DNA of 64,000 nucleotides, from positions 1,866,413-1,930,412 of the forward strand of contig NZ_OZ244791.1 of NCBI RefSeq assembly GCF_965219815.1, read 5' to 3'. Both the position numbers and the translations under genes were made by a program. Positions 3,372 to 26,047 of the stretch are shown here, piece after piece (position 1 is the first letter of the stretch; each line of letters opens with the position of its first letter). The notes below the pieces were generated by a model, which was not told the origin of the DNA, did no database searches, and worked only from the letters and a program-made list of their open reading frames with translations. This stretch comes from Candidatus Poriferisocius sp. (GTDB lineage: Bacteria > Actinomycetota > Acidimicrobiia > Acidimicrobiales > Bin134).

Positions 3372-3868
3372 CGGATTCCTCTGTGCACCCCACGAGTGAG
3401 GTGGCCGTTGCGCTGGAGCTGAACGGCGAAAATGTTCGTGCCACGATCCCGGCGCACCGGACGCTGCTGGACATGCTTCGAGATGACCTTGGCCTCTGCG
3501 GCACCAAACGCTGTTGCGCCGAGGGTGAGTGCGGCGCCTGCTCTGTGCTCCTGGACGGCGAACTCGTCAACTCCTGTCTCGTACTCGGCGCCGAGGCCGA
3601 CGGCGGAGCCCTCCTCACGATCGAGGGGGTGTCCATGGGCGGCATAACCGACCTCCAGGCCGAGTTTCTGGCCGCTGGGGCCGTTCAATGCGGGGTGTGC
3701 ATTCCCGGTCAGGTCATGGCGGCCGAGCAACTCCTGCGAACGAATCCCAATGCCTCCCGAGATGAGATCCGAGACGCCATGTCGGGAAACCTGTGCCGAT
3801 GTGCGAGCTACCAGCGGATCGTTGAGGCGATCCAAACCGCGGCGGCCGGAAGGCAAACCGATGCCTGA
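3368..3868 (+). CDS. (2Fe-2S)-binding small subunit (CoxS-like)
   Basis: 166 aa with two cluster motifs: CAEGECGACSV, and CGVCIPGQ...CRCASYQRI. Confidence 0.9.
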   Translation: MTDSSVHPTSEVAVALELNGENVRATIPAHRTLLDMLRDDLGLCGTKRCCAEGECGACSVLLDGELVNSCLVLGAEADGGALLTIEGVSMGGITDLQAEFLAAGAVQCGVCIPGQVMAAEQLLRTNPNASRDEIRDAMSGNLCRCASYQRIVEAIQTAAAGRQTDA

Positions 3869-6176
3869 CGAAAACCAAGGTCTTTCCTCCAATGGTCCCG
3901 TTGCTGGCACCGACCGGGTGGTCGGCCAGCGGATTCACCGTTACGGGGGCATAGATCGGGTCACCGGCGCTCAGCGTTACCTGAGCGACATCACGTTTAC
4001 CGATGCCGCGCACGTGGCGTTCGCCACTGTTCCCGTCGGATGCGCCGCGATCGACGCAATCGATACCTCGCCGGCGGCGGCGATGCCCGGCGTCATCGCG
4101 GTGGTACACGCCGATGACCTGCCTCAGCCCGTGGCCCGGTTCGGGATTTCCCATAAGGACCGACCGGTGATCGCTACCGAGACGGTCAACTACCACGGCG
4201 AGCCTGTTGTCGCGGTGGTTGCCGAGACTGAAGACGAGGCCCGGGCTGCGGCTAACGCCGTCGTCATCCACTTCACCGAGTTGACCGGTGTGTACGGGCT
4301 CGACGCGGCCCTGGCCGGCGACGCCCGATTGGTCCAAGACCCTTCAGTTCGGCCCGGCGATGACCTGAACTCCACCAATGTTCTCGAGCAGGTTGAGTAC
4401 GCATGGGGTGATGCCGACTCGGAGGGCGCCAGCTCGCACACGATCATCGAGGACACCTACACGTTCCCGATGGTCACCCATTTTCCGATCGAGCCCGGCG
4501 GAATCGTCGCCGTACCGACCGATGACGGTGGTATCGAGGTTTACTCGCCGGTCCAGCACCCCTACCTCCTCCAGCGGACGATCGCCGAGGTGTGGTCGCT
4601 TCCACTGTCGCGGGTCCGGGTCATCGCCCCGGATCCCGGCGGGGGATTCGGCGGAAAGCAAACCCCTCGATATGAGCCCCTGATTGCCTTCCTCGCCCTC
4701 AAAACGGGACGTACCTGCCGCCTCGTGCTCTCGCTGGAAGAGGCGTTTCAATTGATGCGGCGGTCGGGTTGTCGGATCCACGCGCGCACAGGATTCACAG
4801 AAGCGGGCGAGCTGGCCTTCCACGAGATGCAGGTCGATTTCGTGGTCGGGGCCTACGCGGACGTCGCTCCTCGGGTCATGACCAAGGGCAGCTATGTGGG
4901 TGCTGGGCCCTATCGGATTCCTCGCGTTTCCATCAACGCACGCGCCGTTTTGACCAACACCGTCCCCAGCTGCGCCTTTCGGGGGTTCGGCGCCCCCCAA
5001 GTCGGGTGGGCCACCGAGTCCCAGCTCGATGCCGGCGCCCGAGCGTTGGGGCTCGACTCGCTTGAGATACGCCGACGCAACCTCGTCGAGCACGACGAGG
5101 CCTTTATCCGCGGCGACTACGAGGCCCGCGCCGACGGCCGCTGGCACGATAGTCTCGAGAAGGCAGCCGAGCTGATCGGCTGGCAGGAGCCGACCCCATC
5201 GGGCCGGGGACGAGGCATTGCCGTCGGGATCAAGCCGGGAGCGACAACGGGTCTGTCCCAGAGCCTGGTCCGCCTGCTTTACGACGGCAGCGCGATGGCG
5301 TATGCGGGCACGTCGGACATGGGGCAGGGGGCTAGGACCCTGTGGAAGCAGATTCTGGCCGACGAGTTGGGCGTTGATCTCGATCTGATCACCATCATCA
5401 GCGGCGACACCAACGCCGTGCCTTTCGACCTTCAGACGTCGGCGAGTCGCTCCACCGTGTTCATGGGCAACGCCGTGCTCGCAGCGTGTGAAGACATCCG
5501 CGACCGAGTTCTCGAGCTCTATGCCGAAGCCACCGAGACCGCACAGTCGGAGCTTTCCCACTCGCCTGGCCAACTTGTCACCCCGTCAGGGGCGATTTCG
5601 CTGGTCGAGGCCGCCCAGACCGCGCTGGGTGGGCTGCGAGGCGAGTTCGTCGGCCAGGGAACCAGCCGCCTATGGGGCACGAAGGGCCACCCGCTCGGCG
5701 GCGATGCGGCGTTCTACGAATTCAACGCCACGGCCATAGAAGTCGAGGTGGATCGCGCCACGGGCGAGATCTTGTTGACCAAGCACGTGACAGTCGGCGA
5801 TGTAGGGACAGAGATCAATCCACTACAGGTCGTCTCCCAGGATGAAGGCGCCGCGATCATGGGCCTGGGTCACAGCCTCATGGAGCAGATGCTGTTCGAC
5901 GATCACGGCCAGATCCTCAACCTGGGCGCGATCGACTACCGGATCCCGACATTCAACGATGTCGCGCTCCATATGCAGACCGCATCTGTCGAGAATCAGG
6001 ACGGCCCTGGCCCATACGGGTGCAAGGGAATCAGCGAGGGCGCGCTGCTGTGTACGGCGGGCGCCGTTGGCGCGGCGGTTGCCGACGCCATCGGCACACC
6101 GGTTCGCGAACTCCCGATCACCGCGGAGCGGGTCTGGCGCACCATCCGCGACGCCACCCTCGACTCGCCGGATTAG
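3861..6176 (+). CDS. molybdopterin-binding large subunit of the xanthine dehydrogenase/aldehyde oxidase family (CoxL-like)
   Basis: The track ORF is 3750-6176. I chose the ATG at 3861 (MPDENQG...), which overlaps the CoxS stop. Motifs: PDPGGGFGGKQ and CAFRGFGAPQ. It lacks the CODH form I/II active-site loop, so it is a generic hydroxylase. Confidence 0.85.
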   Translation: MPDENQGLSSNGPVAGTDRVVGQRIHRYGGIDRVTGAQRYLSDITFTDAAHVAFATVPVGCAAIDAIDTSPAAAMPGVIAVVHADDLPQPVARFGISHKDRPVIATETVNYHGEPVVAVVAETEDEARAAANAVVIHFTELTGVYGLDAALAGDARLVQDPSVRPGDDLNSTNVLEQVEYAWGDADSEGASSHTIIEDTYTFPMVTHFPIEPGGIVAVPTDDGGIEVYSPVQHPYLLQRTIAEVWSLPLSRVRVIAPDPGGGFGGKQTPRYEPLIAFLALKTGRTCRLVLSLEEAFQLMRRSGCRIHARTGFTEAGELAFHEMQVDFVVGAYADVAPRVMTKGSYVGAGPYRIPRVSINARAVLTNTVPSCAFRGFGAPQVGWATESQLDAGARALGLDSLEIRRRNLVEHDEAFIRGDYEARADGRWHDSLEKAAELIGWQEPTPSGRGRGIAVGIKPGATTGLSQSLVRLLYDGSAMAYAGTSDMGQGARTLWKQILADELGVDLDLITIISGDTNAVPFDLQTSASRSTVFMGNAVLAACEDIRDRVLELYAEATETAQSELSHSPGQLVTPSGAISLVEAAQTALGGLRGEFVGQGTSRLWGTKGHPLGGDAAFYEFNATAIEVEVDRATGEILLTKHVTVGDVGTEINPLQVVSQDEGAAIMGLGHSLMEQMLFDDHGQILNLGAIDYRIPTFNDVALHMQTASVENQDGPGPYGCKGISEGALLCTAGAVGAAVADAIGTPVRELPITAERVWRTIRDATLDSPD

Positions 6177-7512: not shown

Positions 7513-8256
7513 ATGGCGACCGCGATGAGCCCAAAGGGCGGCCGCACGGTACGGGTGATTCTCCTTCGGCACGGCCAAGTCGCCCACCACCGGAGCGATG
7601 TGGGCCTCACCGATCTCGGGGTTGCCCAGTCGGAGGCCGCCGGTCGCTGGTTCGCAGAGCAGGGAGTCGAGATCGAGTGCCTGCTTAGCGGCGAGACGGC
7701 ACGAACCCTCGACACGGCAACCGCGTTCGCGGCTGGCTATCGCGGAGTGGCCGGCTCACCTGAGCTGCCTGAACCCGTGGTGGGCTTCGCCCTGCGAAAC
7801 CCCGACCTCTACCTCGGTGGGCATCGGGTCAACATCGCAGAGGGCGCCGAGGCAATCGCAGCACAGGCACCTGGCATCAGCCCGGAGGACGTGGTGAGCT
7901 CTCCGTTCTTTGGCAAACTGATCAGCGCCGAGGAGCGGGTCGGCTACTGGCTGGAGCATCCCAACCCGCCTGGAGAGGACGCTCACGCCGTCGCTTGGCG
8001 AGTCGTGTCGTTCGTCAGAAGTCTGGGCGACGGCGCCGGTCGAGCGGGAGCAACCGTCGTGGCCATCACCCACTCGCCAGTGCTCAGGGCCGTCCGGCTT
8101 GGATTCGAGAACGTGTACACACGGGAGCCTCCGTTCCTTCACGGCTTCTCGCTCATCGCCGGCCGAACCGGTGACATCACGTTCTCATTGTTCGAAACGG
8201 ACACGGGTGACATCCCGGCGACGTCAAAGCCGGGGCCCGGACTGGAGGAATCCTGA
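7513..8256 (+). CDS. histidine phosphatase family protein (phosphoglycerate-mutase-like)
   Basis: The track ORF 7252-8256 overlaps the previous gene. The internal ATG at 7513 gives MATAMSPKGGRTVRVILLRHGQ (RHG catalytic motif), with a later ITHSPVLRA histidine. Confidence 0.7.
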   Translation: MATAMSPKGGRTVRVILLRHGQVAHHRSDVGLTDLGVAQSEAAGRWFAEQGVEIECLLSGETARTLDTATAFAAGYRGVAGSPELPEPVVGFALRNPDLYLGGHRVNIAEGAEAIAAQAPGISPEDVVSSPFFGKLISAEERVGYWLEHPNPPGEDAHAVAWRVVSFVRSLGDGAGRAGATVVAITHSPVLRAVRLGFENVYTREPPFLHGFSLIAGRTGDITFSLFETDTGDIPATSKPGPGLEES

Positions 8257-9164
8257 TGCGATCCGCAATCATCACCTGCGCACCGACTGGCGCCATCCAC
8301 ACCCCGTCGATGTCGCCCTACCTGCCCATCACGCCGGGCGAGATAGCCACCGCCGCCATCGGCGCCGCACAAGCCGGCGCCGCGGTCGTACACCTCCACG
8401 TGCGCGATCCCGAGGATGGTCATCCGGTCCAAGACGTCGGCCTGTTCCGGGAGCTGCTCGATCACATTCGAGCTGAGAGCGATGTGGTCATCAACGTCAC
8501 CACCGGAGGCAGCCCCCACATGACCGTTGACGAGCGCATTCGCCCGGCATTGGAGCTCGCCCCCGAACTCGCCTCGCTCAACATGGGCACCATGAACTTC
8601 GGCCTATACCCCATGCTGGAGCGCTTCCCCGATTTTCGCTATGACTGGGAACGCACCCATCTTGGCAACAAGGCCCTTATCTTCCGGAATTCCTTCGAGG
8701 ACATTGAGCGCATTCTCAAGTCCTGCGGAGATCAGGGCACTCGGTTCGAGTTCGAGTGCTACGACACCGCCCATCTCTACAATCTGGCCCACTTCGTCGA
8801 CCGGGGCCTGGTGGAGCCGCCGCTCTTCGTGCAATCCGTGTTCGGCATCCTCGGGGGGATGGGGGCTGATGTCGACGATGTGATACACCAACGCCGCACG
8901 GCTGAGCGCCTCTTTGGCGACGACTTCGAGTGGTCGGTTCTCGGTGCCGGTGCGGCGCAGACCCGGGTTGCCGCGCTTTCTCTCGCCCTTGGGGACAACG
9001 CTCGCGTGGGTCTCGAAGACTCGTTGTGGGATGGCCCGGGCCGCCTGGCCGAGGCGAACCGCGACCAGGTCGAACGGGTTCGAGTCCTGGCCGAAGCCGT
9101 CCATCGCAGCGTCGCTACTCCGGAGGAAGCCCGCGGGCGACTTCGGCTTCGCGGTGTAGCATGA
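8256..9164 (+). CDS. beta-keto acid cleavage enzyme family protein (BKACE, 3-keto-5-aminohexanoate cleavage enzyme-like, DUF849)
   Basis: 302 aa. The N-terminus IITCAPTGAIHTPSMSPYLPITPGEIA and VVHLHVRDPEDG are characteristic of BKACE TIM barrels. The start overlaps the upstream stop (TGATG). Confidence 0.8.
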   Translation: MRSAIITCAPTGAIHTPSMSPYLPITPGEIATAAIGAAQAGAAVVHLHVRDPEDGHPVQDVGLFRELLDHIRAESDVVINVTTGGSPHMTVDERIRPALELAPELASLNMGTMNFGLYPMLERFPDFRYDWERTHLGNKALIFRNSFEDIERILKSCGDQGTRFEFECYDTAHLYNLAHFVDRGLVEPPLFVQSVFGILGGMGADVDDVIHQRRTAERLFGDDFEWSVLGAGAAQTRVAALSLALGDNARVGLEDSLWDGPGRLAEANRDQVERVRVLAEAVHRSVATPEEARGRLRLRGVA

Positions 9165-9174
9165 CCCGCACTAA

Positions 9175-9185
9175 TCGATTATCGA
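9175..9185. promoter_or_regulatory. putative GntR autoregulatory operator, perfect 11-bp palindrome TCGATTATCGA
   Basis: Perfect palindrome (TCGAT-T-ATCGA) 26 nt upstream of the GntR start codon, in an AT-rich patch of an otherwise G+C-rich genome. A related copy lies at 2471-2483. Confidence 0.4.
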
Positions 9186-9210
9186 ACGTTTACCCAGGAA
9201 TCGGTTTCCC

Positions 9211-9903
9211 ATGGCCCTAGACAGTTCCGTCCTCGGAACCGAACCACTTTCAGCCGCTACCAAGCGTCTCCTGCTCGACCGGATTGTCAAGGGCGAGCTT
9301 GTGCCGGGAGAGCGCATCGTTGAGAGCCGGCTGGCGAAGGAACTCGACATCAGTCAGTCCCCGATCCGCGAGGCGCTTCGCGACTTGGCGGCCGCTGGCT
9401 TGGTAGACATCGAGTCGCGGCGAGGGGCGCGGGTGCGCAAGCCCACCAACCGCGAGCTCTGCGACGTCAGCGAGGTGCGGGCCGAGATAGACGCGCTAGC
9501 GGCGCGGCTCGCAGCCGAACGGCTCGACGACGAGACCATCGAGGAGCTTCAGTACGCGCATCAGCTCATGTCTGATCGGCTGGAAGCCGGTGACTACGTC
9601 GGAATGACCGAGGCAGACGCCGGGTTCCATCGCATCATCGTCCGGGCATCGGGCAACGGCGCCGCCGAAAGGGTGTTCGGGCAACTTGAGCCGTTCGCCC
9701 GCACCTTCATCACGCTCACGTCGCCAAATGTGCCGCTCCGTGGGATTCTGGCCCAGCACAGCGGCATCCTCGAGGCGCTCATCCAGCGCGATCCAGACTT
9801 GGCTGCGAGCCGGGCCAAGGCCCATCAGCTCAGCGTGCGAAAGATGTTCTTCCAAGCCGATCACGGAGAGCCGGCGGACAGCGACGCGGTTTCAGATGGC
9901 TAA
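9211..9903 (+). CDS. GntR family transcriptional regulator (FadR/FCD subfamily)
   Basis: 230 aa. N-terminal winged HTH (ESRLAKELDISQSPIREALRDLAAAGLV) and an all-helical C-terminal FCD-like domain. Confidence 0.85.
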   Translation: MALDSSVLGTEPLSAATKRLLLDRIVKGELVPGERIVESRLAKELDISQSPIREALRDLAAAGLVDIESRRGARVRKPTNRELCDVSEVRAEIDALAARLAAERLDDETIEELQYAHQLMSDRLEAGDYVGMTEADAGFHRIIVRASGNGAAERVFGQLEPFARTFITLTSPNVPLRGILAQHSGILEALIQRDPDLAASRAKAHQLSVRKMFFQADHGEPADSDAVSDG

Positions 9904-21353: not shown

Positions 21354-22919
21354 TCAGGCTTTTTCGGAGGGCGGCGGCAATTGGCCAACCCACAGCTCGT
21401 CGCGGAGTTTGGTGCGGAGGACTTTGCCGGTGGGGTCGCGATCGACCGTAGGGCGGATGATGTAGCGGCGGGGGCGCTTGTAGCCCGCGAGGTGCTCATT
21501 GCAGGCGGCGTCGATGGCTGCGGTCACCTCGTCGGGCCCGAAGCCGTCGGACACGGCCAGATACACCACCACCTGTTCGCCCCGGTCGGGGTCGGGTCCG
21601 CCCACCGCACAGGCATCGGCCACCCCGTCGACCGCGAAGATCACGTCCTCGATCTCGGCGGGGTAGATGTTCACTCCGGCGGCCACGATCACCTCGGAGC
21701 TGCGGCCCGACAGGTACAGATAGCCGTCCTCATCCAGGTAGCCGATGTCGCCCACCGAGAAGAACCCGGCTTCGTTGTAGGCGTCGTCGGTCTTGTCATC
21801 GGCGTTGATATAGCGGAAATAACGCCCTTCGGGTCGGCGGAAGTACACCGTGCCGGGCTCGCCGGGGGCCAGCACCTCGCCGTTGTCGTCCACGATCTGG
21901 ATGACGAGCTCACCGATGGGGGTGCCTACGGTGCCGGGCCGGGCCAGCCAATCGGTCGAGCTGCACATGGTCATCCCGCCTTCGGTGAAGCCGTAGTACT
22001 CGGTGAAGATCGGGCCCCACCACTCGATCATGCGCTGCTTAAGAGGCACAGGGCAGGGTTCGCCGCCGTGGAGGACAGTGGCCAGACGGGAGTGGTCCAG
22101 ATCGGATTTTCGCTCGTCGGGCAGGGCTAGGAGCTGGCGGAACATGGTGGGAACCATGATGGAGGCGGTCACTCCGTCGTTGATCACGTCCACGGCTCGC
22201 TCCGCGTCCCACCGTCCCATGATCCGCATGGGCGCGCCGTTGGCCAGCGCCCCCAAGGCAAAGGCCAGGGGAGCGCCGTGAAAGAGCTGGGCCACCAAGA
22301 GGTGCTTGCCGTCTCGGGGCAGACCCAGCCCCTGGGCCCCCATTGACGAGAACTCCCACCACTGCTCAAAGGTGGACTCCGAGTCCAGAGTGCGCTCCAC
22401 CCCTTTGGGCCGCCCTGTGGTGCCCGAGGTGTAGGGGATGCGATAGCCAGTGCCCCCCGCCGGGAGCGGCGTCGGATCTTGGGCATCCACCCAGGCGTCG
22501 AATTCGTCGCCAATCCACACCACCGGGCGGTGGCTGGCCGCGTCTCGGGCCGCGGGTGCGTCGGTCACCACGAGCGCTGAGCCAGCATCGTTGAGCACGT
22601 AGGCGATCTCGGTGGCTGTCCAGTTGGTCTTGATCGGCGTCATCTTCAGCCCGGCCCGAAAGCAGGCCAGCATGACCTCCACGAACTCGGTGCGGTTGGA
22701 GCACACCAGCCCGACATGATCCCCCGGCGAGGCCCCCGCGGCCAGGAGCCCCCGCCCGATGGCATGGGTGCGCCGGTCCAGCTCAGCCCAGGTCATCTGA
22801 TGGGTGTCGTCCTCCAACGCCAGGTCATTCGGTTCCCGCCTGGCCAACTCCGCCAGCACCGAGGGTTCGCTCACTGCTGCGACACTACCGGTCGTATCAG
22901 GCTTCGCCGACAATTCCAC
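21354..22919 (-). CDS. AMP-dependent acyl-CoA synthetase/ligase (FadD-like)
   Basis: 521 aa. AMP-binding motif IPYTSGTTGRPKGV and C-terminal GDIGYLDEDGYLYLSGR. GTG start at 22919. Confidence 0.9.
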   Translation of the reverse strand: MELSAKPDTTGSVAAVSEPSVLAELARREPNDLALEDDTHQMTWAELDRRTHAIGRGLLAAGASPGDHVGLVCSNRTEFVEVMLACFRAGLKMTPIKTNWTATEIAYVLNDAGSALVVTDAPAARDAASHRPVVWIGDEFDAWVDAQDPTPLPAGGTGYRIPYTSGTTGRPKGVERTLDSESTFEQWWEFSSMGAQGLGLPRDGKHLLVAQLFHGAPLAFALGALANGAPMRIMGRWDAERAVDVINDGVTASIMVPTMFRQLLALPDERKSDLDHSRLATVLHGGEPCPVPLKQRMIEWWGPIFTEYYGFTEGGMTMCSSTDWLARPGTVGTPIGELVIQIVDDNGEVLAPGEPGTVYFRRPEGRYFRYINADDKTDDAYNEAGFFSVGDIGYLDEDGYLYLSGRSSEVIVAAGVNIYPAEIEDVIFAVDGVADACAVGGPDPDRGEQVVVYLAVSDGFGPDEVTAAIDAACNEHLAGYKRPRRYIIRPTVDRDPTGKVLRTKLRDELWVGQLPPPSEKA

Positions 22920-22932
22920 GGCTCATTGCGAG

Positions 22933-22964
22933 GTACGTCATCGTACAGTCGGTACCGAAGGTAC
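22933..22964. repeat. four phased GTAC motifs (GGTACG-5-GTACA-4-GTACC-4-GTACG)
   Basis: GTAC occurs at 22933, 22943, 22952 and 22961, about one helical turn apart, 14-45 nt upstream of the fadD-like GTG, at the left junction of the low-G+C insert. Confidence 0.5.
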
Positions 22965-23087
22965 GAGCATGGCCTGATGAAGCCACTCGGTAGAATTTCT
23001 GGGGAACTATGTTGGCCATACTCCATCCCCTGACCTGGCGTTTTGAAAAATATCTCGTGTTGTACTGGTGTCATCGTAGAAATCGTC

Positions 23088-23093
23088 TATAAT
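23088..23093 (+). promoter_or_regulatory. candidate -10 box TATAAT for the low-G+C cassette
   Basis: Perfect TATAAT 63 nt upstream of the ATG at 23156, which is preceded by AAGGAG at 23143-23148. I could not find a well-spaced -35 (TTGTAC lies 22 nt upstream). Confidence 0.35.
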
Positions 23094-23155
23094 ATCCTTG
23101 TGGGGGATATTCGGAAGAAGTTTGGCTCGGCCGCCAGTCATTAAGGAGAAGCACC

Positions 23156-24079
23156 ATGAGCAATGACCTTGAATCGATCTCCAGCAGTGTCGGGGGGAAG
23201 GAAGACAACGAAAGCGCTGCCATCAGTAATAGAGGCGGGCCGCAGAGGAGGGGGGCCGGTTTTCCAAGGCTGTCACTCTCAGAGGCATCCAGAATTCTGA
23301 AAGAGGCTGGCAAGTACGGTTTTGAGCATACTGCATCGGCGTTTGCCGAGTACATGGGCCTAAGTACGACCAACAGTGGCAGCTTTCGTCAGCGACTCGC
23401 AGCATTTCGGGACTTCAAACTCATTGCTGGCCGAGGTGAGGTCCTCACAATGACTGGCGTGGCCAGGCAGATTGCTAAACCCCTTAGCGACGCAGGAGAA
23501 CTAGAGGCACTGCAGGAAGCGTTCGCAAATTGTCAGATATTTGCTGACTTATATGAAAAATCCTCTAAGGGTGTGTCCCTGCAGCGTAGACATCTTGCAG
23601 CACGCGCAATTCACGAGTTCCGAGTTTCACCGGCCAACGGCGATGCGTTTGTGGATTCATTCGCCGAGAGTCTCGCGGCTGCAGGGTTGGGAGAAGAAGA
23701 CGGTGAGGATGTTGTCATTCTCCGGGAAAAAGTTGGGCGTCCCGTGGACAACGCCAATGGGGAGACCCAATCCGAGAATGAGTCACTGACCGATACAGGC
23801 GGACTCATACAACAGCCTGCGTCCACTCCAGCTTTCCCTGAAGAACGCGATTCCAAGTCAAAAATTCTTCCAAAACCAGTCATCGATCACACTTGGGAGA
23901 TCCAAGGCGGACAAGTTGTATTCCAAGTCTGCATGGAGGGAGCACCGGCTTCCGATGCATACAGCAACATCGGGACAGTGATAGCCAGCATCGAGGAACT
24001 AGTGAATGTGCTTGGCCCGGATCAGCCAATCGGGCAGGTCGATGAGCCGGAGAATGGGACTGATGGTCCGGAGGAGTGA
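23156..24079 (+). CDS. orphan protein of unknown function (first gene of the low-G+C cassette)
   Basis: 307 aa with a strong RBS. The layout is a polar N-terminus, a helical region (LSLSEASRILKEAGKYG...FRQRLAAFRDFKLIAG), an acidic linker, and a short C-terminal domain. The stop overlaps the next start (ATGA). No family recognised. Confidence 0.7.
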   Translation: MSNDLESISSSVGGKEDNESAAISNRGGPQRRGAGFPRLSLSEASRILKEAGKYGFEHTASAFAEYMGLSTTNSGSFRQRLAAFRDFKLIAGRGEVLTMTGVARQIAKPLSDAGELEALQEAFANCQIFADLYEKSSKGVSLQRRHLAARAIHEFRVSPANGDAFVDSFAESLAAAGLGEEDGEDVVILREKVGRPVDNANGETQSENESLTDTGGLIQQPASTPAFPEERDSKSKILPKPVIDHTWEIQGGQVVFQVCMEGAPASDAYSNIGTVIASIEELVNVLGPDQPIGQVDEPENGTDGPEE

Positions 24080-24513
24080 TGACGAGTAAGGAGGCCGAGG
24101 AAAACGCACCTTGGCGCGTCCACTTCTTTCGCCGGGAAAGGGGTGGCGATCTATCGGAAGCCGTTCCAGCAATGGGGTTCTTGAAGTCCGTTCCTAGCGG
24201 TGTGGCCGCGAAGATCCAGGCGGTCTTGGAGGCTGTTGCCGAAGCACCCCCACCATCGTTCTCTGGTGGAGGAATGTGGAAGGCGATGCGTGGCGATATG
24301 GCAGGTTTCTACGAGGTGTGTGTTCAAGGGTCGGATGCAAACTATCGGTTGCTTTGCCTTCTCGACCGCCACGCTGATGACCTGGGCGGATCATCGATTA
24401 TCTGCGTCTATGGGTTTTCAAAGCCAAAGCGACAGAGTGCAAGCGGCAGAGATTACAGGCAGGCCAGAAAATACCGGGAAGAATTCGAACGAACCAGGAA
24501 TGTGCTTAGCTGA
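24076..24513 (+). CDS. Gp49/HigB-like toxin (RelE/ParE superfamily, DUF891-like)
   Basis: 145 aa. The C-terminal half (GFYEVCVQGSDANYRLLCLL...SSIICVYGFSKPKRQSASGRDYRQARKYREEF) follows the Gp49-like pattern (F-E-hR, YR-hh, hhhhhxFxKK, Y). Translationally coupled to the upstream gene. Confidence 0.6.
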   Translation: MMTSKEAEENAPWRVHFFRRERGGDLSEAVPAMGFLKSVPSGVAAKIQAVLEAVAEAPPPSFSGGGMWKAMRGDMAGFYEVCVQGSDANYRLLCLLDRHADDLGGSSIICVYGFSKPKRQSASGRDYRQARKYREEFERTRNVLS

Positions 24514-24838
24514 TTTTGGCGGCACCTAGCTCGGCACCAGTCCCGTGACCGGCTCCCAGTTCAAGCCCAACAGCACAGGCAAGGTCAACCACAGTGCCGA
24601 ATGAGGGGTCGGGTGTTTCGAGCGAGTAGATCTGCCGGATGTCTTCGGGATTGATATTGGCCTGGCAGGCTAGCTCCTCGTAGCTCCAGCCCAGCTCATT
24701 TCGGCGCTGGTCAATGAGCCGAATGATGGAATCGAACTGGTCATCTCTGTGACGGGCCTGTTCGACTGTGCAGCGATACTCCGGGTCGTCCATGCGCTCT
24801 GCGAAATACCGTTCGGCACCGGTGCGTTCCCTGGACAT
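24506..24838 (-). CDS. XRE-family helix-turn-helix protein (HigA-like antitoxin/regulator candidate)
   Basis: I chose the ATG at 24838 (MSRERTGAERYFAERMDDPEYR...). The HTH is LGWSYEELACQANINPEDIRQIYS. The 3' end overlaps the toxin 3' end by 8 bp in convergent orientation. Confidence 0.65.
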   Translation of the reverse strand: MSRERTGAERYFAERMDDPEYRCTVEQARHRDDQFDSIIRLIDQRRNELGWSYEELACQANINPEDIRQIYSLETPDPSFGTVVDLACAVGLELGAGHGTGAELGAAKIS

Positions 24839-24844
24839 ATAGCC

Positions 24845-24850
24845 ACTATA
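24845..24850 (-). promoter_or_regulatory. candidate -10 box (TATAGT on the minus strand) 6 nt upstream of the XRE ATG, implying a leaderless mRNA
   Basis: The minus strand reads TATAGT-GGCTAT-ATG. There is no Shine-Dalgarno sequence, and the spacing fits transcription starting at or next to the A of the ATG. Confidence 0.3.
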
Positions 24851-24895
24851 GCGACCCGTCAACCGCGGTAGACAGGCCATTCAACTTTAGAACCG

Positions 24896-26047
24896 TCAGG
24901 AGGGATTGCCGCCGAGGCCGATTTGGCGGGCGATGATGTTGCGCTGGATCTCGCTGGAGCCGGCGCCGATTGTGCCCAAGCGGGCATTGCGCCAGTGAAG
25001 CTGCATGTTGGAGTCGAGGGTGTAGCCGTAGCCGCCCATCACCTGCATCCCGGAGTAGCTGGCCCGCATCATGGCCTCGCTGATCCACAGCTTGGCCATC
25101 GACACTTCTAGGGAGCACGGCTCGCCCGCGGCGATGCGCCGGGCCAAGTCCCAGGTGAGGGTGCGGGCGATGTTCACGTCGACCGCGACGTCGGCCAGCA
25201 TGTGCTGGATGGCCTGGAAGCGCCCGATGGCCTGGCCGAACTGCTCCCGGGTGTTGGCGTATTCGATGGCCTCATCCAAGATGGCCTCCATCGGCCCGAG
25301 GTTGATGGGCAGTGAGGAGAACCGCTCCCGCTCCAGGTTGGCCTGAAGATTGCGATGGCCCTGGCCCTCGGCGCCCAAGATGTTGGCGGCCGGCACCCGC
25401 ACGTCGGTGTAGGCAACCATGTTGGTTCCGCTGGCCCGCTCGCCGATGGTCTCGATGGGAGTGATCTCGATGCCGGGGCTCGACAGGTCCACCACGAAGA
25501 ACGTGATGCCGTCCTGTTTTTTCGGCTCATCGGAAGTGCGGGTGGCCAACAGCACGTAGTCGGCGTGGCGGGCGAAGGAGTTCCACATCTTGGTGCCGTT
25601 CACCACGTACTCGTCGCCGTCGCGCTCGGCCCGGCATTTGAGGTTGAAGGCGTCGGATCCGGCATCGGGCTCGCTGAGCGAGAAGCAGAACTTGTACTGG
25701 CCGGAGGCGATACCGGGGAGGAATCGCTCCCGCTGTTCCTCGGTGCCGTAGATCTGCAATCCCCCCGACGCGTGGATGGCAGACCGATAGACCATGATGG
25801 CGAACGACATCATGGCCCGGCTCAACTCGTGCAAAACGATGGCCACCTCCACGATTCCCCCGCCCTGGCCGCCGTGCTGCTCGGGGATGCCAACCCCCAT
25901 GAACCCGGCATCAGCGAACCGCTGGTAGGTCTCCAGTGGGGGCTCGCCCTTGATGTCCCACTCCCGGGCGAACCCGTCGGGCATCTCTTTGGCCGCGAAG
26001 CCTCGCACCGATTCCCGCAGCAGCTCCTGTTCGGGGGTGAACTCCAT
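24896..26047 (-). CDS. acyl-CoA dehydrogenase
   Basis: 383 aa with the typical three-domain ACAD sequence (FTPEQELLRESVR...GIPEQHGGQGG...MQVMGGYGYTLD...GAGSSEIQRNIIAR). Confidence 0.9.
   Translation of the reverse strand: MEFTPEQELLRESVRGFAAKEMPDGFAREWDIKGEPPLETYQRFADAGFMGVGIPEQHGGQGGGIVEVAIVLHELSRAMMSFAIMVYRSAIHASGGLQIYGTEEQRERFLPGIASGQYKFCFSLSEPDAGSDAFNLKCRAERDGDEYVVNGTKMWNSFARHADYVLLATRTSDEPKKQDGITFFVVDLSSPGIEITPIETIGERASGTNMVAYTDVRVPAANILGAEGQGHRNLQANLERERFSSLPINLGPMEAILDEAIEYANTREQFGQAIGRFQAIQHMLADVAVDVNIARTLTWDLARRIAAGEPCSLEVSMAKLWISEAMMRASYSGMQVMGGYGYTLDSNMQLHWRNARLGTIGAGSSEIQRNIIARQIGLGGNPS

Follow-up and report, generated by a model that had tools for sequence, protein, structure and literature searches.

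In a 64,000-nucleotide (nt) stretch of DNA from Candidatus Poriferisocius sp., hereafter the window, three genes that we call A, B and C occupy a segment of foreign composition between the genes for an acyl-CoA dehydrogenase (ACAD) and an AMP-ligase. A and B are encoded on the plus strand and C, which runs towards B, on the minus strand, as described in an earlier note on this DNA that was made from the letters alone. Our analysis suggests that B and C are probably a HigB(Gp49)/HigA-type toxin-antitoxin (TA) module, conserved in a tail-to-tail arrangement with separate promoters, and that A is an accessory, swappable repressor of the toxin promoter. The invariant unit is the pair of B and C, to which A is an optional addition. 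Gene content, layout, folds, conservation, purifying selection, the insertion and the promoter and operator motifs we observed; toxicity, binding partners and trigger we infer. The features of the segment and their coordinates are collected in Table 1, and loci from other genomes are cited by handles such as L007.

The arrangement of the three genes is strongly conserved. Among the loci found via A that hold enough DNA to judge, A and B are followed by a convergent C in 24 of 24, and these loci come from Acidimicrobiales, Iamiaceae, Ilumatobacteraceae, Microthrixaceae, Solirubrobacterales, Euzebyales and sponge symbionts. The suggestion that A recurs upstream of Gp49/RelE-like genes and near XRE genes was thereby upheld. 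A second, B-centred census covered 80 metagenome loci. C lies convergently and directly downstream of B in all 73 loci with room for it, and C matches fall on the strand opposite B in 77 of 77 cases. A is present in 28 of the 49 loci with room for it and missing in the other 21, and its presence changes about eight times on a neighbour-joining tree of B. The three-gene convergent module of the earlier note is thus a real and conserved layout, but the minimal unit within it is B-C. When true stop codons are used, the 3' ends of B and C overlap by 4-68 nt in 73 of 88 non-identical loci, and the remaining pairs are separated by 1-10 nt (14/88) or by 58 nt (1/88). Moreover, the pairwise divergences of A, B and C correlate, most tightly between B and C (r = 0.91).

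Loci without A show what the pair can do by itself. At the ACAD/AMP-ligase site, L044, L110 and L111/L112 carry B and C only, with the 8-nt overlap and with B intact at 144 amino acids (aa). These A-less copies of B have a ratio of nonsynonymous to synonymous divergence (dN/dS) of 0.12-0.15 at a dS of 0.29-0.74, and a conserved AT-rich, promoter-like block lies upstream of B. Selection thus maintains the convergent pair as a unit that suffices by itself, and this is the main reason for giving the antitoxin role to C and not to A. Across the loci without A, the position upstream of B is taken by a tyrosine integrase gene ending 1 nt before B, by a protein of about 215 aa, by an RHH_1 protein, or by nothing; in L129 a ribbon-helix-helix (RHH) protein sits in A's slot. 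The alternative partner of about 215 aa (A'; L140, L180, L164 and L114) has no Pfam domain and overlaps the start of B by 11 nt. Its helical N-terminal domain is followed by a linker rich in Pro and Ala and by a conserved C-terminal module with the pattern ...YPFPLR...LPPDL..EA.RL..F..LA.... The partner showed no detectable homology to A. Homology between this module (in L140/L180, beta-beta-helix by eye) and the C-terminal module of A was considered and rejected, as hhalign returned a probability of 0.3%.

The segment is horizontally acquired foreign DNA inserted between the ACAD and AMP-ligase genes, as the earlier note had proposed from its low G+C content. Across positions 22900-24900 the G+C content is 0.51-0.59, against 0.64-0.70 in the flanks (means of 0.55 for the insert and 0.67 for the flanks). 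Codon usage is foreign as well: the G+C content of third codon positions is 0.53 in A, 0.58 in B and 0.65 in C, compared with 0.82-0.90 in four neighbouring host genes. Both flanking genes lie on the minus strand, ACAD at 24896-26047 and the AMP-ligase, as its longest open reading frame (ORF), at 21354-22919. With the ACAD protein as query, 26 orthologous loci were retrieved (L033-L058; 89-98% amino-acid identity), each from a different species in the Candidatus Poriferisocius group, which are sponge-associated Acidimicrobiales. In 12 of the 26, all from other species, the ACAD gene abuts the AMP-ligase gene directly, so the comparison with relatives that the earlier note had recommended did yield empty sites. 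Homology to these sites stops exactly at the ACAD stop codon (24895) and picks up again at 22890-22864, which delimits the insert to about 22891-24894. The AMP-ligase probably starts at a GTG at 22874 and not at 22919, where the earlier note had placed it. In the empty sites of L034 and L039 (about 8145-8160) the ACAD stop and the AMP-ligase start overlap as ATGA; the window cassette thus splits a gene pair that is translationally coupled elsewhere.

The same junction is found in several other states. The full A-B-C cassette is present in the window, L007, L012/L037 and L011/L046, while L044 has B and C without A. A decayed cassette is seen in L056, where C is intact and B is reduced to profile positions 5-52. 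A duplicated 3' fragment of ACAD (residues 272-383) lies beside it at 8980-9315 and suggests a local rearrangement at the insertion site. About 8 of the 26 loci carry a different insert of 1.8 kb at the junction, with an amidohydrolase gene and an HbpS/GlcG-like gene. This alternative insert (8 species) was ruled out as a mobile cassette, as it holds metabolic genes with native G+C content. L111 carries the metabolic insert and B-C together.

No convincing terminal inverted repeats or target-site duplication were found around the window insert, and CCTGA, the sole repeat that recurs at both junctions, may be due to chance. The window cassette contains no integrase and no attachment sites. The module has a lower G+C content than its flanks in 15 of 15 loci. 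Other loci show signs of mobility. In L013 the module sits between two perfect, directly repeated 38-nt copies of the 3' end of tRNA-Gly(CCC) (3560-3597 and 5370-5407, spacing 1,810 nt), which look like the attL/attR pair of a minimal integrated element without an integrase, and in L004 its neighbours are a tmRNA gene and a recombinase-like gene. L001 has the same tRNA-Gly fragment upstream of A, with no intact tRNA nearby. Between the window and L007, dS is 0.41-0.56 in the cassette and 0.13 in ACAD. This three- to fourfold higher value could stem from lineages having exchanged cassette alleles, or from the strong codon bias of ACAD. A phage origin of the module was ruled out, since no relatives of A or B were found on IMG/VR viral contigs and PHROG matches were only weak.

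Judged by its predicted structure, B is a RelE/ParE-fold protein of the Gp49/HigB kind, in line with the earlier assignment. Its AlphaFold2 model has a predicted local distance difference test (pLDDT) score of 88.6. In Foldseek the top match is M. tuberculosis RelE2 (3g5o_B; E-value 8e-4, probability 1.0, template modelling (TM) score 0.74), followed by V. cholerae HigB2 (5ja8/8a0x) and E. coli HigB (6kmq). The window copy itself scores 18.1 bits against the Pfam Gp49 profile (PF05973; E-value 0.0029), below the cut-off of 23.9 bits. Among 30 members of the B family, the Gp49 profile matches 28 at E-values below 0.1 (best 1.5e-5) and YoeB_toxin matches 24, and a YoeB-type motif, GxGKxE..GDxxGxY..R, was picked up by the profile search. 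The structural matches and the family profile matches together lead to the fold assignment. In addition, conserved basic and aromatic residues lie on the strands that hold the active sites of the RelE family. B is the most constrained of the three genes, with an omega of 0.07 between the window and L007.

C is an XRE-type protein, as proposed earlier, with a helix-turn-helix (HTH) domain. Its longest ORF spans 24506-24880 on the minus strand, but the start codon is most likely the ATG at 24838, where the family alignment places the conserved start, which gives a protein of 110 aa. The window copy matches HTH_3 weakly (E-value 0.03), whereas 13 of 13 members of the C family match it (best 2e-11), and a profile search of the PDB returned HipB and 434 Cro. 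About 40 helical residues precede the HTH, a layout which we take to resemble that of HigA2-type antitoxins. The gene was often missed by gene callers and is uncalled in several public assemblies. Its omega, 0.16 between the window and L007, together with the values for A (0.21) and B (0.07), shows that all three are real, constrained genes.

The start region of C points to a promoter of its own. A TANNNT box 5-8 nt before the start codon is found in 55 of 60 distinct loci for C genes and in 3 of 34 for A genes, whereas motifs like the Shine-Dalgarno (SD) sequence precede 4 of 60 C genes and 12 of 34 A genes. In actinobacterial transcription, a -10 box just ahead of the start codon without an SD sequence is the signature of a leaderless mRNA. 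The C mRNA is predicted to be of this leaderless type and to arise from its own promoter. A palindrome abutting the -10 box is the putative operator of C. At this position most other loci have GCGTAAC-N6-GTTACGC (at most two mismatches, 51/60), and the clade of the window has a different palindrome and a correspondingly divergent HTH. Half-sites of the C operator are absent from the A promoter of the window, and nothing thus indicates that C regulates the A-B promoter in this DNA. A scan for sigma-70 promoters and intrinsic terminators gave nothing above shuffled expectation, and Rfam families had no match in 22600-25200.

A appears, from its structure model, to be a tandem winged-helix DNA-binding protein of a family without earlier description or annotation. 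Alignment and AlphaFold2 agree on its layout: residues 35-190 form the tandem winged-helix region, 191-240 a variable, disordered linker, and 241-290 a conserved module of a beta-hairpin plus a helix. The two winged-helix-like units were modelled with a pLDDT above 90. The structural check suggested in the earlier note was clear for the fold of B and yielded only weak matches for A (best E-value 0.027 by Foldseek against the PDB). All of these were winged-helix proteins, namely the tandem winged-helix units of Stn1, Rpc5 and SelB, plus JetB, FokI, MarR and DtxR. A had no match in Pfam, NCBIfam, PHROGs or PADLOC, a sequence-profile search of the PDB returned nothing, and no Pfam domain was found in any of 42 diverse family members. 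The protein is not the orphan that it had been taken for, as it has 170+ close homologues and belongs to a family of 1,976 representatives at 50% identity in a profile search, 150 of them with E-values below 1e-30. Nor is its junction with B an ATGA overlap: the sequence is GTGATG, in which the TGA of A overlaps the GTG of B by 4 nt or the ATG of B by 1 nt, and across loci the gap between A and B ranges from -4 to +8 nt. Between the window and L007 the omega of A is 0.10 in the winged-helix region, 0.32 in the linker and 0.14 in the C-terminal module.

Contexts of distant members of the A family were looked up in few cases, several of them on contigs too short to inform. In L195 (2807-5330) a distant A-family gene leads an operon with the PADLOC candidate PDC-M34A (E-value 3.5e-12, DUF5343-like) beside a Fic gene. 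In L031 (1266-4237) such a gene adjoins an N6-methyltransferase gene, followed by genes for a protein resembling a lamin-tail domain and for membrane proteins. For the complete module, L001-L003 (7722-12852) have a type I restriction-modification (R-M) locus directly downstream of A-B-C, just after dnaB, with an AbiEi/AbiEii pair between hsdR and hsdM.

A natural exchange of alleles suggests a link between A and its promoter. Both expression signals that the earlier note had read ahead of A, a TATAAT box and an AAGGAG ribosome-binding site, are present, and a palindrome lies over the -10 box. The TATAAT block is near-identical in L007, and the distal upstream sequence diverges. The flanks of L011 and L012 are 89-92% identical to the window, but about 22889-23893 is unalignable. 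This stretch comprises the promoter and codons 1-246 of A, and overall identity between the A proteins is 54%. Beyond it, from codon 247 on, the tail of A, B, C and the C operator match the window at about 98% identity. In L012 the C protein is 99% identical to that of the window and is combined with the swapped A allele, whose promoter carries a different perfect palindrome, CTGTTGTCGG-N8-CCGACAACAG. The palindrome of the A promoter thus changes with the winged-helix half of A and not with C, which points to A as its binder. On this comparison of sequences, A would bind the palindrome of the A-B promoter.

The segment also holds four GTAC cores, which nest as a palindrome (TCGTAC..GGTACC..GTACGA) between the AMP-ligase start and the A promoter. 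The array falls within the segment swapped in L011 and L012 and possibly belongs to a divergent AMP-ligase promoter.

Table 1. Features of the cassette and its surroundings (positions in the window)
Feature	Position	Strand	Basis or remark
Whole foreign insert, about 2.0 kb	22891..24894		homology breaks to 12 empty orthologous sites and drop in G+C
Gene A, 307 aa	23156..24079	+	ORF; AlphaFold2 model; family profile
Gene B, 144 aa (ATG 24079) or 145 aa (GTG 24076); putative RelE/ParE-fold, Gp49/HigB-like toxin	24079..24513	+	
Gene C, 110 aa, XRE-HTH; putative HigA-like antitoxin and autorepressor	24506..24838	-	HTH_3 profile; PDB profile search
Overlap of the B and C stop regions, 8 nt (TTAGCTGA)	24506..24513		sequence
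TATAAT, putative -10 box of the A-B promoter	23088..23093	+	sequence
Palindrome AATATCC-N7-GGATATT, putative A operator	23091..23111	+	overlaps the -10 box; arms kept in L007, spacer differs
AAGGAG, ribosome-binding site for A	23143..23148	+	7 nt before ATG 23156
GGAGG, B's own	24069-24073	+	just upstream of the B start
TATAGT, -10 box of C	24845..24850	-	6 nt before the C ATG
Palindrome CCTGTCTAC-CGCG-GTTGACGGG, putative C operator	24855..24876	-	abuts the C -10 box; inverted-repeat scan
Four GTAC cores (gGTACg, cGTACa, gGTACc, gGTACg), spaced by about 10 nt	22930..22966		read from sequence

These observations can be combined into a working model. By homology, B would be a ribosome-dependent mRNA endonuclease, and C would bind and neutralise it and repress its own promoter. 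Since B and C invariably converge and overlap at their 3' ends, each must have a promoter of its own. There is no room for a terminator between them, and the transcripts must therefore be complementary at their 3' ends. This complementarity may add control by antisense RNA or transcriptional interference. In the window, transcription of the toxin gene would follow that of A, with translational coupling between the two. The most likely role of A is to repress the A-B promoter by way of the palindrome that covers the -10 box, which would set the level of toxin, and its beta-hairpin plus helix module may either dimerise A or contact B. As a speculation, read-through from the host ACAD gene, which would be sense for C and antisense for B and A, might favour the antitoxin.

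Several observations speak against this model. The window copies of B and C score under the Pfam gathering thresholds, the toxicity of B and its neutralisation by C are argued by homology, and antisense control is read from the geometry of the genes only. Palindromes at A promoters across loci are weakly enriched (6.06 versus 5.67 of 7 in shuffled sequence), so the case for A binding its own promoter leans mainly on the comparison of the window, L007 and L012. A and B have no PADLOC match and do not occur on viral contigs, which leaves a defence role unsupported either way. In addition, A has the classic layout of an antitoxin, with a DNA-binding domain, a linker and a small C-terminal module, it is encoded upstream of the toxin and coupled to it, and an RHH protein replaces it in L129. 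These last features suit another assignment, in which A is the true antitoxin, co-translated with B, and C is a dedicated transcriptional regulator only, like PaaR2 in paaR2-paaA2-parE2. Such an assignment has some chance of being right, albeit a small one. The narrow range of the gap between A and B agrees with it, as do the disordered linker before a small folded module, the antitoxin-type nature of the RHH protein, and the break of the allele swap at codon 247, through which the C-terminal module of A stays with B. It fares badly with the distribution of the genes, as A is missing in 21 of 49 B loci after about eight changes on the B tree, A-less pairs persist at the ACAD/AMP-ligase site with B intact and constrained (dN/dS 0.12-0.15), and C, which belongs to a protein class known to neutralise Gp49-type toxins, is never missing (73/73). 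A circuit of hybrid type can also be imagined, which would work through the tail-to-tail overlap itself. In it, the 3' ends of the toxin and antitoxin mRNAs would be mutually antisense, the leaderless promoter of C and the toxin promoter controlled by A would compete through transcriptional interference and duplex formation, and A would be an exchangeable third part. We hold this to be possible but unlikely. In such a circuit, shut-off of C transcription or relief of the repression by A would tip the balance towards the toxin; candidate triggers are the element being lost, a phage-induced shut-off of the host, and a cue that the swappable A senses. If true, this would be a protein TA system under type I-like regulation whose third component is modular and exchangeable, and members of the A family (about 2,000 clusters) would act generally as lead regulators in small operons for defence and toxins.

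A role in abortive infection or phage defence, with the fast-evolving, swappable N-terminal half of A sensing a phage cue and releasing B, seems to us quite improbable. The type I R-M locus with embedded AbiEi/AbiEii genes adjoining the module in L001-L003, the operons with an N6-methyltransferase (L031) or with PDC-M34A next to Fic that distant A-family genes lead, the alternative A alleles on a constant B-C background, and the sponge-symbiont hosts are all in keeping with it. Against it, A, B and C match no PADLOC model apart from a weak capH match for C (E-value 0.014), A is dispensable in many lineages, and few contexts were sampled; moreover, the low omega of the winged-helix region (0.10) and the co-varying promoter palindrome are more in line with a repressor that binds an operator than with a sensor of phage. 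A regulatory switch of small integrative elements, with C as a CI-like repressor, A as a second regulator and B as a non-toxic co-regulator or very mild RNase, is very unlikely in our judgement, even though the module associates with integrases and with tRNA or tmRNA attachment sites, encodes two DNA-binding proteins with separate putative operators, and includes a B whose toxicity is a prediction from its relatives. The strongest constraint of all falls on B (omega 0.07), which keeps the basic and aromatic residues on the RelE-family active-site strands, and the window cassette is maintained despite having no integrase or attachment sites. The decay of the toxin with retention of C in L056 is, furthermore, the usual fate of TA loci. 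We therefore retain the tail-to-tail HigB/HigA-type module with an accessory A as the probable reading.

The module matters in several respects. The B-C lineage comprises hundreds of members across Acidimicrobiia, Solirubrobacterales and Euzebyales. Its layout implies another regulatory logic, with separate promoters, a leaderless antitoxin mRNA and an obligatory antisense overlap of the 3' ends. A large, unannotated tandem winged-helix family has been defined, and the natural allele swap, in which the same B-C pair is joined to a different A and palindrome, provides material for studying DNA-binding specificity and operator co-evolution. The window is also an example of a cassette that splits a host operon whose genes are translationally coupled in related genomes.

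Type II TA systems are defined, and computationally searched for, as co-directional two-gene operons. As the toxin gene of the present module always converges on its antitoxin gene and overlaps with it, the module escapes operon-based searches and gene callers. No earlier description of it was found in Pfam, NCBIfam, PHROGs, PADLOC or the searched literature, and the "convergently transcribed" TA systems in the searchable literature are all of type I. A 2025 survey of the RelE/ParE superfamily gives the gp49 order as toxin then antitoxin, with gp49-family toxins pairing with HTH antitoxins encoded downstream and with 69 gp49-HTH fusions, and it mentions neither a convergent layout nor a winged-helix partner for gp49 (PMC11980606).

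Comparison with other known systems sets the module apart in different ways. Type I TA systems and excludon-type pairs resemble it in convergent transcription and overlapping 3' ends, which would give complementary RNAs. Here, however, both partners are conserved proteins under purifying selection (omega of 0.16 for C), the toxin is a soluble RelE-fold protein of 144 aa and not a small membrane peptide, no Rfam family matches the region, and the antisense overlap would be an extra layer and not the defining mechanism. AbiEi and BrxR/CapW-type regulators are similar in that the first gene of a small toxin or defence operon encodes a winged-helix DNA-binding protein, probably autoregulatory. No sequence similarity of A to them was detected, and A differs in having two tandem winged-helix units and a beta-hairpin plus helix C-terminus, with no WYL or AbiEi C-terminal domain. 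PADLOC v2 likewise leaves A and B without a match and gives C the weak capH match only. Three-component systems such as paaR2-paaA2-parE2 of E. coli O157:H7 and the toxin-antitoxin-chaperone (TAC) system HigB1-HigA1-SecB of M. tuberculosis also combine a RelE/ParE toxin with two proteins, including at least one DNA-binding regulator. These are single co-directional operons, whereas one gene is on the opposite strand here. Their further components comprise either a CI-like regulator together with a small PaaA antitoxin or a SecB chaperone, whereas the third component here is a facultative tandem winged-helix protein of an unannotated family, with neither SecB nor any other Pfam domain, present in 28 of 49 loci beside a convergent C.

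The closest relatives are the HigBA/Gp49 systems, such as V. cholerae HigB2-HigA2 and the HigB-type pairs of M. tuberculosis. The module shares with them a RelE/ParE toxin with Gp49 similarity, a partner of about 110 aa in which an N-terminal helical segment precedes an XRE HTH and whose gene lies downstream of the toxin gene, and a palindromic operator, putative here, at the antitoxin promoter. Of the features of this class, the toxin fold and the XRE partner are thus found, and the single operon with the toxin first is not. Instead, the antitoxin gene is inverted, overlaps the toxin gene at the 3' end in essentially all loci and would have its own leaderless-type promoter. B is additionally extended by about 12 residues at its N-terminus and has a PPPSFSGGG loop, and an extra gene is often present upstream. 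The earlier claim of an undescribed TA module therefore holds as far as the searched databases and literature go, but not in its stronger sense: C has all the marks of a HigA-like XRE partner and is only inverted, so that the module is best regarded as an unusual variant of HigBA and not as a categorically new system.

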